Shown piece by piece: positions 23,706 through 28,858 of a DNA stretch of 64,000 nt. A program made the translations under genes and the position numbers. Within the stretch, counting starts at the first letter, position 1. The number at the start of each line of letters is the position of its first letter. Origin of the DNA: Escherichia coli (lineage in GTDB: Bacteria; Pseudomonadota; Gammaproteobacteria; Enterobacterales; Enterobacteriaceae); assembly GCF_002854065.1 (NCBI RefSeq), contig NZ_CP024147.1; one strand, given 5' to 3'. The notes under the pieces were generated by a model. It saw only the letters and a program-made list of their open reading frames with translations, was not told the DNA's origin and did not search any database.

Positions 23706-24725
23706 TTACCTGAAAGCAACAGTAGCCATAGCTAACGTCGTGTCGAGCATTCGGTTAGCAAAGCCCCATTCGTTATCGCACCAGACCAACGTTTTGATCA
23801 GGTGTGCGCCACTGACCCGGGTTTGGGTGCCATCGACAATGGCACTGTGCGGATCGTGGTTAAAATCTACAGAGACCAACGGCAATTCCGTATAGTCAAC
23901 TATACCATGAAATGCACCTTGTGCTGCTTTTTGCAGCAACAGGTTGACTTCATTGGCTTTTACAGGTTTCTTCACCGTCACGCTTAAATCGATTGCCGTC
24001 ACATTTATGGTTGGCACACGTACCGCAATCGCTTCAAAGCGATCGTTAAATTGCGGAAAAAATCGTGTGATACCGGCGGCCAGTTTAGTATCGACCGGAA
24101 TGATCGACTGGCTGGCTGCCCGGGTGCGACGCAGGTCAGGATGGTATGCATCAATAACCTGTTGATCGTGCATGGCGGAGTGAATTGTGGTCACAGTGCC
24201 GGACTCAATACCGTACGCATCATCTAACAATTTGATGACGGGAATTATGCAATTCGTGGTACAGGAAGCGTTAGAAACGATGCGGTGTTCCGCACGAAGT
24301 TGATCCTGATTGACGCCGTAAACAACGGTCGCGTCGAGATCGTTACTGCCAGGATGTGAAAAGAGCACTTTTTTGGCCCCGGCGGCAATATGCGCTTCGC
24401 CATGCTCGCGGGAGCCATATACGCCGGTGCAGTCGAGGACTACATCAACGCCAAGTTCACGCCAGGGGAGCGATTGCAGTGAACGTTCATGCAATACGCG
24501 GATGGCGTCATCACCAACAAAAAGTTGATCGCGTTCCTGTCGTACTTCCCATGCAAAACGGCCATGGCTGGTGTCATATTTCAACAAATGCGCCATGCCC
24601 GCAGCATCCGCCAGTTCGTTGATTGCCACCACGGTAATTTCCGCCCGGCGTCCGGATTCATACAAAGCACGAACCACATTACGCCCGATGCGACCGAAGC
24701 CATTTATCGCTACGCGTACGGTCAT
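23706..24725 (-). CDS. epd: D-erythrose-4-phosphate dehydrogenase
   Basis: Track ORF 23706..24809 trimmed to [30 protein letters not shown]... (339 aa); GAPDH family. Confidence 0.93.
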
Positions 24726-25099
24726 AGATCTCCTGCAAGGTTTTCCCTGAGCAAATTTGCCAGACAGAGTAATCCAGCAAATCGTCCGGGGAAACCTTAC
24801 CTGTCGCAAACTGCGACTGATTGGTTAATTGTCGAACATTTAATCGACTGAAACGCTTCAGCTAGGATAAGCGAAACGTGGAATAAAAGGAATGATTGTC
24901 CAGTCAAAGAAGACAATTATCTGACTTACGTCACGTTTTCAGCCCCGCCCCTGTGGAATTTATTCCACTTTGCAGAATCACGAATAAGCGTAGCAAAATC
25001 TTTTCGTTGTGCCGTCACAAACCCTGACTTATATCAGAATATGACTGATGCAGCGTCGATATTATCCGCAATACGTCCGAGTTTCGGAGTACTCCAATG

Positions 25100-25528
25100 A
25101 TGACATTGCCCTACCCATATTCTTCCTCCGCACGCTTTTACGCACTGCGCCTCCTCCCCGGGCAGGAAGTTTTTTCCCAGCTACACGCTTTTGCACAGCA
25201 GCAGCAACTTCATGCCGCCTGGATTGCAGGCTGTACCGGTAGCCTGACTGACATCGCCTTGCGCTATGCCGGGCAAGAAGGCACCACGCTCCTGAACGGT
25301 ACATTCGAAGTGATCTCACTAAACGGCACGTTGGAACAGAGTGGTGAGCATCTTCATCTCTGCGTTTCCGATCCACACGGCACGATGCTTGGCGGTCATA
25401 TGATGCCCGGCTGTACCGTGCGGACCACGCTTGAACTGGTGATCGGTAGCCTTGAGGAACTGGCGTTTAGCCGCCAACCTTGCGCGCTTTCTGGTTACGA
25501 CGAGTTGCATATTTCCCCCGTTAAATAA
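25100..25528 (+). CDS. DUF296 (PPC domain) protein; first gene of accessory transporter operon
   Basis: 142-aa ORF MTLPYPYSSSARFYALRLLPGQEVFSQL...GEHLHLCVSDPHGTMLGGHMMPGCTVRTTLELVIG; PPC/DUF296-like pattern; 22 nt upstream of next gene. Confidence 0.6.
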   Translation: MTLPYPYSSSARFYALRLLPGQEVFSQLHAFAQQQQLHAAWIAGCTGSLTDIALRYAGQEGTTLLNGTFEVISLNGTLEQSGEHLHLCVSDPHGTMLGGHMMPGCTVRTTLELVIGSLEELAFSRQPCALSGYDELHISPVK

Positions 25529-25550
25529 CTACTTTCAGAGAGGTTTTCTT

Positions 25551-26129
25551 ATGGCGCGTAGCCACTTTTCCAGTCAGGCGCTGGTGTTAATCGTTATATC
25601 TATCGCCATCAATATGATCGGCGGGCAACTGGCCAGCATGGTCAAATTACCTATATTTCTCGACTCCATCGGCACACTTATTAGCGCGGTACTGCTTGGT
25701 CCGGTGATCGGGATGCTGACCGGTTTACTGACCAATTTACTCTGGGGATTGCTGACCGACCCGATCGCCGCCGCATTTGCGCCCGTGGCGATGGTCATCG
25801 GCCTGGTCGCCGGTTGGCTGGCGCGAGCGGGTTGGTTCCGCACCCTGCCAAAAGTCGTTGTCAGCGGCGTGATTATTACGCTTGCGGTAACGGTCGTCGC
25901 TGTACCGCTGCGTACTGCGCTGTTCGGCGGTGTCACCGGTAGCGGAGCCGATTTGTTCGTTGCCTGGATGCACTCGATGGGGCAAAACCTGGTGGAGTCG
26001 GTGGCGATTACGGTGATAGGCGCGAACCTGGTCGATAAAACTCTTACAGCGGTGATTGTCTGGCTTTTACTGCGCCAGCTGCCGATTCGCACCACGCGCC
26101 ATTTTCCGGCAATGGCTGCCGTGCGCTAA
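25551..26129 (+). CDS. ECF-type transporter substrate-specific (S) membrane component, substrate unknown
   Basis: Track ORF 25452..26129 trimmed to ATG 25551 after RBS agagagg; 192 aa, about five hydrophobic helices; stop overlaps next start (TAAATG). Confidence 0.6.
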   Translation: MARSHFSSQALVLIVISIAINMIGGQLASMVKLPIFLDSIGTLISAVLLGPVIGMLTGLLTNLLWGLLTDPIAAAFAPVAMVIGLVAGWLARAGWFRTLPKVVVSGVIITLAVTVVAVPLRTALFGGVTGSGADLFVAWMHSMGQNLVESVAITVIGANLVDKTLTAVIVWLLLRQLPIRTTRHFPAMAAVR

Positions 26130-26837
26130 ATGCATCCATTTACCTCATTAACACTATGGGCATTGGCGGCCTGCACCACGCTTATCCTGCCCGCGCAGAC
26201 CATTTTGCCGATCTATAGCGCGGCGACCTTTTTTTGCCTTATTGCGCTAAAGGCCACGCGGCGGCGGGCAAAATATGTCGCCTGGCTGATGTTCTCGCTG
26301 GGAGCCGGGCTGTGGCTGGTACACGGTGGCTGGCTAACAGAATGGCTAAGCGGCACGCCGCGTTCGCCGGAGCGTTGGACGCATGCTATTACGCTCTGGT
26401 TGCGGATTCTGGCGATTGTTTCAACCTCACAGTTGTGGATGCAGTACGTCCCCGTGCAATGTTTTATCCGCGCCCTGTTCGCCTCCCGCCTGCCGCCGGG
26501 CGTCGCTTATCTGTTTGCCGGGCCGTTATTGGTCGTTGAGCAATTAAAACGGCAATTAGCGATTATCCATGAAGCGCAGCGCGCCCGCGGCGTGCCGCTT
26601 GATGAAGGCTGGTATCAGCGTTTACGCGCGATGCCCGCATTAATTATTCCGCTAACACACAATGCGCTAAACGATCTTGCTGTCCGTGGTGCGGCGCTGG
26701 ATATGCGGGCATTTCGGATCCACAACCGACGAACAACGTTGTGGGCACCAGCCGATAGCACCCTACAACGCGTAGCGCGTTACACCATGATCTTGCTGAT
26801 GCTGACAGAATTCGGAGCGTGGATATGGTTACGTTAG
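26130..26837 (+). CDS. ECF/cobalt-type transporter transmembrane (T, CbiQ-like) component
   Basis: 235-aa polytopic membrane ORF; operon position between S component and ATPases. Confidence 0.6.
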   Translation: MHPFTSLTLWALAACTTLILPAQTILPIYSAATFFCLIALKATRRRAKYVAWLMFSLGAGLWLVHGGWLTEWLSGTPRSPERWTHAITLWLRILAIVSTSQLWMQYVPVQCFIRALFASRLPPGVAYLFAGPLLVVEQLKRQLAIIHEAQRARGVPLDEGWYQRLRAMPALIIPLTHNALNDLAVRGAALDMRAFRIHNRRTTLWAPADSTLQRVARYTMILLMLTEFGAWIWLR

Positions 26838-27502
26838 AACAGTTCCGTTATTGCCCGACACACTCAACGCATCCTCCGTTCTGTTATGACTTTCACTATG
26901 TCAAACCGGGGATGGTCGCCATCTTTGGTGACAACGGCAGTGGCAAAAGTACGCTGGCGCAACTGATGGCGGGCTGGTATCCGGACTTTCTGCCTGGAGA
27001 GATTGCAGGCACGGGAACGCTCCTCGGTACGCCCGTTGGGCATCTCCCGCTTAATGAACAATCCGCCACCATCCAGCTCGTCCAGCAATCGCCCTATTTG
27101 CAGCTCTCCGGCTGTACCTTTAGCGTGGAAGAAGAAGTTGCCTTTGGGCCAGAAAATCTGTGTCTTGCTGAAGCAGAGATTATGGCGCGGATTGATGCCG
27201 CCCTGACTCTGACCGAGTGCCAGCCGTTGCGCCATCGTCACCCGGCAACACTCTCCGGTGGAGAGACACAGCGCGTGGTCATCGCCTGCGCCATCGCGAT
27301 GCAGCCAAAGCTATTAATTCTTGATGAAGCCTTTAGCCGCCTGACGCCGCAGGCCAGCGAAATGCTGTTGCAGCGCTTACAACACTGGGCGTTTGAACGT
27401 GGTTCGCTGATTATTCTTTTTGAACGTCATCGCACACCTTTCCTGAACTACTGCCAGCAAGCGTGGCAATTGCAAAACGGAGCGCTCCAGCCACTATGTT
27501 AA
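26825..27502 (+). CDS. ABC/ECF transporter ATPase subunit 1 (canonical motifs)
   Basis: Walker A GDNGSGKST, signature LSGGETQR, Walker B LLILDEAF; alternative GTG start at 26819. Confidence 0.8.
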   Translation: MVTLEQFRYCPTHSTHPPFCYDFHYVKPGMVAIFGDNGSGKSTLAQLMAGWYPDFLPGEIAGTGTLLGTPVGHLPLNEQSATIQLVQQSPYLQLSGCTFSVEEEVAFGPENLCLAEAEIMARIDAALTLTECQPLRHRHPATLSGGETQRVVIACAIAMQPKLLILDEAFSRLTPQASEMLLQRLQHWAFERGSLIILFERHRTPFLNYCQQAWQLQNGALQPLC

Positions 27503-28173
27503 CGTTAAATCAGATAACTTATCGCTGGCCTGACGCGGCAACGGATTGTCTTTGCGACATTTCTCTGCAACTCAAACAAGGTGAATGGTTGGCTCTGACC
27601 GGCGACAATGGTGCAGGAAAATCGACGCTGTTACGAGTAATGGCAGGTCTTCTTACGCCCACAGCCGGTACGGTTATGCTGCAACAACAGGCGATGAAAA
27701 ACCTGAAAAACCGCCAGCGCGCGGCAAAGGTTGGCGTACTGTTTCAGGAAGCGGAAAACCAGCTTTTTCACAGCACCGTCGCTGACGAGATCGCATTTGG
27801 TTTGAAACTGCAAAAATGCCCGGCGGATGAAATCACTCAACGTACCAATGCTGCCCTGCAATGCTGTCAGTTAGCAGACACTGCCAGCGCGCACCCGTTG
27901 GATCTGCATAGTGCGCAGCGACGGATGGTCGCCGTCGCCTGCCTGGAAGCACTCTCTCCGCCACTATTGCTGCTGGACGAGCCGAGTCGGGATTTTGACG
28001 AAAATTGGTTGAGCGTGTTTGAAAGCTGGCTGGAGAAGTGCCGCCAGCGAGGCACGAGCGTCGTAGCAATCAGTCATGACGCCGCATTTACCCGGCGTCA
28101 TTTCTCTCGTGTGGTGCGACTGGAAGATGGTCTAATCAGGAACATTAATCCACCAGACGATATTCACCCGTAG
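27496..28173 (+). CDS. ABC/ECF transporter ATPase subunit 2 (degenerate signature motif)
   Basis: Track ORF 27463..28173 trimmed to ATG 27496 (ATGTTAA overlap with upstream stop); Walker A GDNGAGKST, Walker B LLLDEP, signature replaced by LHSAQRR. Confidence 0.75.
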   Translation: MLTLNQITYRWPDAATDCLCDISLQLKQGEWLALTGDNGAGKSTLLRVMAGLLTPTAGTVMLQQQAMKNLKNRQRAAKVGVLFQEAENQLFHSTVADEIAFGLKLQKCPADEITQRTNAALQCCQLADTASAHPLDLHSAQRRMVAVACLEALSPPLLLLDEPSRDFDENWLSVFESWLEKCRQRGTSVVAISHDAAFTRRHFSRVVRLEDGLIRNINPPDDIHP

Positions 28174-28858
28174 CGGTCATCATTAAGGTCAAATTTGCAG
28201 GTAGACTCTCTTCCAGCACCCGGCGAACATTCGGCCCGTCGGTACGGTCATAAAAAGCTTCTGCGTCTGCCAGCGATACCCCTCCCGCCAGCTTGCGCCC
28301 TACCAGTCGTTCCCGCAACGCAGTAGCTGGCGCGTTGATAAAGATCGAGAATTCACAAAATTGCGCAAGCTGGCACCACTTCTCGTCGTCCAGCAACAAC
28401 CAGTTTCCTTCGACGATGACGAGTGGTGCGGTAACGTGCAACGCATCTTCAACAGGATCATGCTTTTGTCGATCGTACTGCGGCCACGTACAATCCCCTT
28501 CCACGACCTGGCGTAGATTTTCCGCCAGTTTCGCAACGTCAAATGTCTCTGGTGCGCCTTTGAAGGGGCGCAATTGATGCGCATCCAGCCAGCTATTGTA
28601 ATGGTGAAAACCATCCATCGGCAGCGTCTGAATAGCGGGCAGTTCCGGGTCTTGTTGCGCGAGATATTCCCAGAAGGTGGTTAGGGTTGATTTACCCGTC
28701 CCCGGCGGAGCGCAAAGAAAAACCACCGTACGCCGCTGCGGATTTACCGTCTGTAAGGCCGCCAACATGTGCAGCAACGGTTTATGTACATTTTCAATCT
28801 CTTCGTTCTGGTACTGTGCCTGTATCTTCAGCCCATTCACCGTTAATTCAATTTTCAC
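28145..28858 (-). CDS. yggC: P-loop nucleoside/pantothenate kinase-like protein YggC
   Basis: 237-aa ORF with Walker A APPGTGKST; convergent with the ATPase gene. Confidence 0.85.
   Translation of the reverse strand: MKIELTVNGLKIQAQYQNEEIENVHKPLLHMLAALQTVNPQRRTVVFLCAPPGTGKSTLTTFWEYLAQQDPELPAIQTLPMDGFHHYNSWLDAHQLRPFKGAPETFDVAKLAENLRQVVEGDCTWPQYDRQKHDPVEDALHVTAPLVIVEGNWLLLDDEKWCQLAQFCEFSIFINAPATALRERLVGRKLAGGVSLADAEAFYDRTDGPNVRRVLEESLPANLTLMMTATGEYRLVD

Follow-up and report, generated by a model that had tools for sequence, protein, structure and literature searches.

An inverted repeat abutting the mapped lmiA promoter of Escherichia coli: asymmetric conservation and candidate roles

The operon that couples a DUF296 protein to an ECF transporter is known in the EHEC literature as O-island 119 (OI-119; Z4267–Z4271), and its first gene, lmiA, encodes a published DNA-binding regulator of LEE1 and gadA/gadBC. 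Its promoter is the closest described system: by primer extension, Liu et al. (mBio 2020, PMC7667037) assigned the start of promoter P1 to a T located 90 nt upstream of the ATG, together with a −35 hexamer TTGCAG, a −10 region TAGCAAAAT and a PhoP DNase I footprint, CTTACGTCACGTTTTCAGC, extending from −82 to −64. Mutation of the PhoP box (GACTTACGTCACGTTTT), which overlaps the footprint, abolished binding, deletion of phoP lowered lmiA expression, and PhoP alone was recovered in a DNA pulldown baited with the lmiA promoter (PMC7667037). The window considered here, a stretch of 64 kb of E. coli DNA analysed as a whole, matches E. coli O157:H7 at 100% and contains the identical promoter DNA, onto which the start site, the −35 and −10 elements and the footprint could all be mapped. 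Assignment of the P1 start to position 25007 (plus strand) is confirmed by the published footprint numbering, which fits this position only; the footprint then falls, as an exact fit, at 24925–24943, the −35 hexamer at 24970–24975 (−37 to −32) and the −10 region at 24991–24999, all on the plus strand, and the published PhoP box at 24923–24939 (PMC7667037). A simple sigma-70 scan of positions 24600–25250 called no promoter even though one is mapped there, the scan being too strict for weak hexamers. Two conserved blocks were seen within 24984–25010, one (ATAAGCGTAGCAA) between the −35 and −10 elements of P1 and one, (G/A)ATCTTTTCGTTG, around the start site, the latter reading GATC in most genera and AATC in E. 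coli.

The minus strand of the locus carries fbaA-pgk-epd, epd being annotated to start at 24725. Divergently oriented on the plus strand are lmiA (Z4267; 25097–25528), a PPC/DUF296 gene according to Pfam PF03479, annotation and literature, and the ECF transporter genes Z4268–Z4271 (25551–28173; a CD3073-like S component, a T component and two ATPases), followed on their 3’ side by yggC, fumE and glpX. The original prediction had placed the palindrome in a 290-bp leader of an operon without an adjacent regulator gene. Neither description holds: the divergent epd/lmiA region comprises about 370 bp, of which the mapped 5’ UTR of lmiA accounts for 90 nt, and the first gene of the operon is itself the regulator gene lmiA. 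A FlhDC gSELEX peak was considered and dismissed as irrelevant to the epd/yggC spacer, as it lies in or near yggC.

The palindrome GTGGAATTTATTCCAC is present at 24953–24968 as predicted and is best described as a perfect 7-2-7 inverted repeat, GTGGAAT-TT-ATTCCAC, its arms extending beyond the original 6-4-6 form; it thus has the dyad symmetry of an operator for a dimeric factor. Relative to P1 it spans −54 to −39 (centre −46.5), between the PhoP footprint, which ends 10 bp upstream of it, and the −35 hexamer, from which 1 nt separates it, so that it abuts the core promoter. It does not contain the PhoP box repeat (T/G)GTTTA-N5-(T/G)GTTTA, and the published promoter study mentions neither the palindrome nor any factor binding between −64 and −37 (PMC7667037). 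Palindromes of this kind are common in the window, where we counted 25 perfect 6-4-6 palindromes, 97 with 7-nt arms and gaps of 0–10, and nine perfect 7-2-7 palindromes compared with 3.75 expected in shuffles; by itself, the palindrome is not beyond chance. No second copy of the motif was found in the window, and none outside the orthologous position among the approximately 109 enterobacterial loci fetched. What does exceed chance is the double occurrence of the 9-mer TGGAATAAA in the 370-bp region, in inverted orientation at 24879–24887 (plus strand) and 24959–24967 (minus strand), with 1.09 occurrences expected per 64 kb.

A role of the palindrome at the RNA level was rejected because the site is upstream of both start sites and hence untranscribed from either mapped promoter, and a cruciform or hairpin role was discarded in view of a stability of merely −4.5 kcal/mol for the hairpin as single-stranded DNA. 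An Rfam scan of the leader (E<=10) detected no RNA family, the single chance hit being inside the epd leader, and the longer leaders of Serratia and Buttiauxella likewise yielded none; there is thus no match to a known riboswitch or cis-regulatory RNA in these leaders.

The related half-site that the original prediction had located some 60 bp upstream does recur as GTGGAAT at 24878–24884 (plus strand), but the distance to the palindrome is 75 bp from start to start (a 68-bp gap), and the half-site ends one base before 24885, the left edge of the element as first drawn. It sits in the core promoter of epd: the epd start site has been assigned 132 nt upstream of the epd ATG, at about 24857 (promoter sequence ACATTCCTTTTATTCCACGTTTCGCTTATCCTAGCTGAA/ACATTCCTTTTATTCCACG...), which puts GTGGAAT into the spacer at −21 to −27 of this start. 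It is conserved in 15 genera, either on account of its place in this promoter or as an element of a distinct, repeated box. Control of epd by Cra and Crp has been reported, and a Cra box, CTGAAACGCTTCAG (24848–24861), also conserved in 15 genera, covers the epd start. A putative CRP-like site of the epd promoter, assigned from its match to the consensus and from the reported Crp/Cra control of epd, has its core at 24920–24935 (about −70.5 of epd) and reads CGTGA-N6-TCAGA on the minus strand (TGTGA-N6-TCAGA in K-12). It is overlapped by the PhoP footprint, so that at 24920–24943 this site of the divergent promoter shares its position with both the footprint and the PhoP box of lmiA; two regulators acting on two promoters may therefore use a single site. 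Other genera have CATTTT as the second ‘PhoP half’ in place of CGTTTT.

To the comparison of orthologous leaders, which the original prediction had itself proposed, we contribute 25 distinct leaders from approximately 15 genus-level lineages, collected by a genome scan, by protein look-ups and by a metagenome scan with the Cra-box pattern, with column conservation evaluated over 15 genera. The palindrome as such is missing from most of these leaders, so that in most genera the operator idea does not hold by the criterion which the original prediction had set for it, and the two arms differ markedly. Columns 24953–24958 (GTGGAA) are unconserved and columns 24960–24967 (TTATTCCA) strongly conserved; across genera, conservation within the palindrome is confined to the box AATTTATTCCA at 24957–24967 (plus strand; −50 to −40 of P1). 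The right arm persists, TTATTCC being retained in 23 of the 25 leaders next to a wholly diverged spacer, and the distal end of the left arm, GTGG (24953–24956, plus strand), belongs to that variable G+C-rich spacer and lacks column conservation. Complementarity of the outer GTGG to the right arm is complete (4/4) only in Escherichia and in one further lineage, represented by loci L054/L083, whose LmiA shares no more than 80% identity with any named ortholog; outside these two lineages, one to five of the seven arm pairs are kept. Perfect symmetry over the full palindrome is restricted to E. coli (all nine leaders sampled) and L054/L083, with one mismatch each in E. albertii and E. whittamii. 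A 12-bp core, GGAATTTATTCC, is kept in about four of the approximately 15 lineages, including the K. oxytoca complex (except K. oxytoca itself) and locus L081, and the proximal half alone in Citrobacter, Salmonella, Kluyvera, Leclercia, Atlantibacter, Trabulsiella, Enterobacter and Superficieibacter. The box AATTTATTCCA is also kept in K-12-type alleles without the operon, and in other genera, genomes lacking the operon have related GGAATAAT boxes flanking the CRP site.

Could box and palindrome simply reflect shared ancestry plus chance, without any function? Palindromes of this size are indeed common, and E. coli leaders are near-identical overall. This reading appears improbable to us nonetheless, as it would have to account for TTATTCC surviving in all but two of the 25 leaders, across about 15 genera, immediately beside a wholly diverged spacer, and for two copies of TGGAATAAA within 370 bp.

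The dimeric-regulator site envisaged in the original prediction fares unevenly: the region is a genuine regulatory one, adjacent to a mapped −35 hexamer, and the palindrome overlaps a conserved cis-element, but its distal arm is unconserved and the pulldown returned PhoP alone (PMC7667037). Spelled out, this idea holds that a dimeric regulator, possibly LacI/GalR-like, given arms equal to those of GalR operators, or IclR-like, would bind TGGAAT-TT-ATTCCA centred at −46.5 in Escherichia and a few other lineages and modulate PhoP-dependent activation. The perfect dyad in every E. coli leader sampled and its position against the −35 hexamer would suit such an operator, as would the L054/L083 form ATGGAAT-TT-ATTCCAT, which attains perfect symmetry with a different, compensatory outer pair, and the retention of the GGAATTTATTCC core in the K. 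oxytoca complex and L081. Complementarity of the outer four bases also lies above that of slid controls, with a mean of 1.64 versus 0.96 when the comparison is slid through the adjacent spacer and with 4/4 matches in two of 25 leaders versus one of 300 control offsets; the excess of dyad symmetry across lineages is, however, modest to weak, shared ancestry being uncorrected in these figures. Conservation within E. coli is uninformative, because the whole leader is nearly invariant there. Equal constraint on both arms would be expected of a symmetric site, and what we see is a left arm unconserved in most genera opposite a nearly universal right arm; the lack of a second copy in the window or the fetched loci and the recovery of PhoP alone from the promoter add to this. 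We therefore consider a true operator unlikely, though it retains some plausibility for certain lineages, and its particular version in which TGGAAT-TT-ATTCCA serves a further regulator that gates PhoP-dependent lmiA activation rather unlikely. If a gating operator did exist, it would add an input to the Mg2+/PhoPQ–LmiA–Ler virulence circuit that controls EHEC adherence, and the compensatory outer pair in an unrelated genus would reflect selection for symmetry.

A second candidate binder is encoded immediately downstream. LmiA, reported to bind A/T-rich DNA, might act on the A/T-rich centre of the palindrome in a feedback loop at its own promoter; an S. bongori ortholog annotated as ‘putative regulator of transporter operon’ and a thesis that examined STM3071 as a regulator of the transporter point in the same direction, and structures of the Salmonella ortholog are available (2HX0, 2NMU). 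We regard such autoregulation as quite improbable: the published LmiA site, TTAAAGTCGTTTGTTAA, is unlike the palindrome, the literature found does not report binding of LmiA to its own promoter, and the left arm is unconserved despite 70–90% conservation of LmiA across the operon-bearing genera compared.

In our preferred reading, to which we would give an about even chance, a conserved promoter-upstream box carries a lineage-specific symmetric extension. Constraint across the Enterobacteriaceae would then act on AATTTATTCCA (−50 to −40) only, as an A/T-rich box upstream of the promoter that could dock the C-terminal domain of the RNA polymerase alpha subunit, or another factor, between the PhoP/CRP site and the −35 hexamer. 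UP elements are the docking sites of the alpha-CTD at sigma-70 promoters, and AATTTATT at −50 to −43 of P1 provides an A/T-rich tract within the −40 to −60 interval, placed between the activator site and the −35 element; it does not agree closely with the UP element consensus, and the conserved CCA of the box counts against docking of the alpha-CTD, because a site defined by its A/T tract leaves CCA unexplained. Alternatively, the box may represent one arm of another dyad, ATTC-N9-GAAT (24962–24978). This dyad overlaps both the right arm and the −35 hexamer; its conservation exceeds that of the palindrome, as both its arms are present at N8–N10 spacing in most of the 25 leaders (ATTCC-N7-GGAAT in Trabulsiella). 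The distal GTGG would be a lineage-specific extension of the self-complementary core AAT-TT-ATT and may stem from drift or from quasi-palindrome (template-switch) mutation. The latter is an established mechanism and could have produced the symmetry excess without selection. We infer an UP-like role of the box and a neutral origin of the left arm, with the consequence that the palindrome as such is more likely not an operator for a dimeric regulator. Against the promoter-box interpretation stand the symmetry excess over slid controls and the perfect dyad in the unrelated L054/L083. In addition, the −10 hexamer of P1 is unconserved in Salmonella and L054/L083, whereas the box is retained there; P1 may therefore not be what the box serves.

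Elements conserved more widely than the box lie 3’ of the published promoter. An FNR-like palindrome, CTGAC-TTAT-ATCAG (25024–25037), is conserved in all 17 genera compared and reads CTGAT-TTAT-ATCAG in most of them. In E. coli alone it is weak (7/10) and uninformative, because the window contains 299 matches to the FNR consensus with at most three mismatches; support comes from conservation and geometry. In 17 genera including Serratia and Buttiauxella (exact CTGAT-N4-ATCAG in 16 of 17), the dyad is followed after a fixed spacer of 22 nt, itself variable in sequence, by TATnAT, a predicted −10 hexamer found in all genera (TATTAT at 25060–25065, plus strand, in E. coli). This spacing would place the dyad at −41.5 of a predicted start near 25072, the geometry of class II FNR- or CRP-dependent promoters. 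The outermost bases of the dyad are C/G instead of the T/A of a class II FNR site (TTGAT-N4-ATCAA), so that CRP or another family member is a possible alternative. We thus predict a class II promoter of FNR type, P2, for lmiA, in line with the reported anaerobic activation of the orthologous Salmonella operon (STM3071–75), which groups with FNR-activated genes. The lmiA papers, which mapped P1 at 25007 alone, do not contain P2. Directly downstream, ACGTCCGAGnnTCGGAGT (25073–25090, plus strand), comprising the palindrome TCCGA-N3-TCGGA (25076–25088) and the Shine–Dalgarno sequence GGAG, shows no variation over 17 genera; each operon-bearing locus has exactly one copy, and loci without the operon have none. 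Its distance from the start codon is about 110 nt in Serratia and Buttiauxella, and it must therefore be more than a Shine–Dalgarno sequence; it could be an operator at +1 to +18 of the predicted P2 or else fold into a hairpin in the 5’ RNA. The stems of TCCGA-N3-TCGGA never vary in the 17 genera and accordingly show no covariation. Neither the predicted FNR-type promoter nor the TCCGA-N3-TCGGA motif has been described before. The longer leader of Serratia also contains a possible upstream ORF of 18 codons, MQRPAFPTPFNSMLFYLS (L033, 2907–3000), which is unconserved in Buttiauxella.

The distribution of the operon differs from its description as an island (PMC7667037). The operon is found in 3329 of 5426 complete E. 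coli genomes and divergent from epd in Escherichia, Salmonella, Citrobacter, Kluyvera, Klebsiella, Silvania, Leclercia, Atlantibacter, Trabulsiella, Enterobacter and Superficieibacter; in Serratia and Buttiauxella it is located elsewhere. ‘O-island 119’ is thus syntenic beside epd in at least 15 genera of the Enterobacteriaceae, and its G+C content of 0.55–0.57 (24947–28200 of the window) is not foreign-like. OI-119 looks ancestral and lost from K-12-type strains (2096 of 5426 genomes), rather than an EHEC-specific island. In K-12-type genomes, homology extends through ...GTGGGAAGCTTTATTCCAG and then ends: the left breakpoint lies right after TTTATTCCA and the right one inside the 3’ end of yggC, and the two allele types therefore have different YggC C-termini. 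K-12-type alleles carry an inverted repeat, TTTATTCCAG-N30-CTGGAATAAA, downstream of yggC (L001, about 1735–1790), and operon-less alleles of other genera (L047, L051, L052, L090, L091) a similar, longer hairpin, AATTATTCCAG..CCGTAATAATCATTACGG..CTGGAATAATT. This similarity suggests that the operon-less allele is of some age and common to several genera, and that it did not arise by a recent deletion.

Among known binding sites, ArgR, IclR/AllR, RcsB, NarL, DnaA-box, sigma-E and sigma-54 sequences were considered and discarded, since the palindrome misfits their consensuses in spacing or key bases. With CRP- or FNR-type sites (TGTGA-N6-TCACA or TTGAT-N4-ATCAA) there is no convincing agreement either, the best register, TGTGG-N6-TTCCA, matching at 7/10 and having its left half in E. 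coli only. A closer likeness is to the gal control region. In the K-12 sequence upstream of galE (L042, minus strand, about 199–165), the right arm of galOE, ATTCCAC, is followed 6 nt further on by AATTTATTCCAT, an 11/12-mer also present in the lmiA leaders; the gal promoter region thus also contains the 11-mer AATTTATTCCA, at about −51 to −41 of galP1, in the weak distal half of the CRP site. One could accordingly imagine the lmiA box as part of a degenerate class II CRP-type site of the galP1 kind (TTTAT-N6-TTGCA, centre near −40.5/−41.5 of P1), with the palindrome incidental to it, given that the promoter-distal half of the gal CRP site consists of this 11-mer, AATTTATTCCA, at a near-equal distance from the start. 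Such a site is only faintly probable: both half-sites are poor relative to TGTGA/TCACA, the proximal half reads TTCCA in other genera, and a good CRP-like site is already available 35 bp upstream. The GalR/GalS operator galOE itself, GTGTAAACGATTCCAC as read in K-12, has the same 7-2-7 architecture with arms GTGnAAn/nTTCCAC and is identical to the palindrome at 12 of 16 positions, including the complete right arm ATTCCAC, which speaks for an operator; the LacI/GalR arm pattern TGnAAn...nTTnCA is likewise present (TGGAAT..ATTCCA). The central CpG step, at which the hinge helices insert, defines the operators of the LacI family. Here the palindrome departs from them, with TT in its centre in place of the CG of galOE, and it has no link to galactose metabolism. 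The control region is already characterised in the literature, and the palindrome, placed between the PhoP footprint and the −35 hexamer, is more likely an unremarkable part of this mapped promoter than a novel operator.
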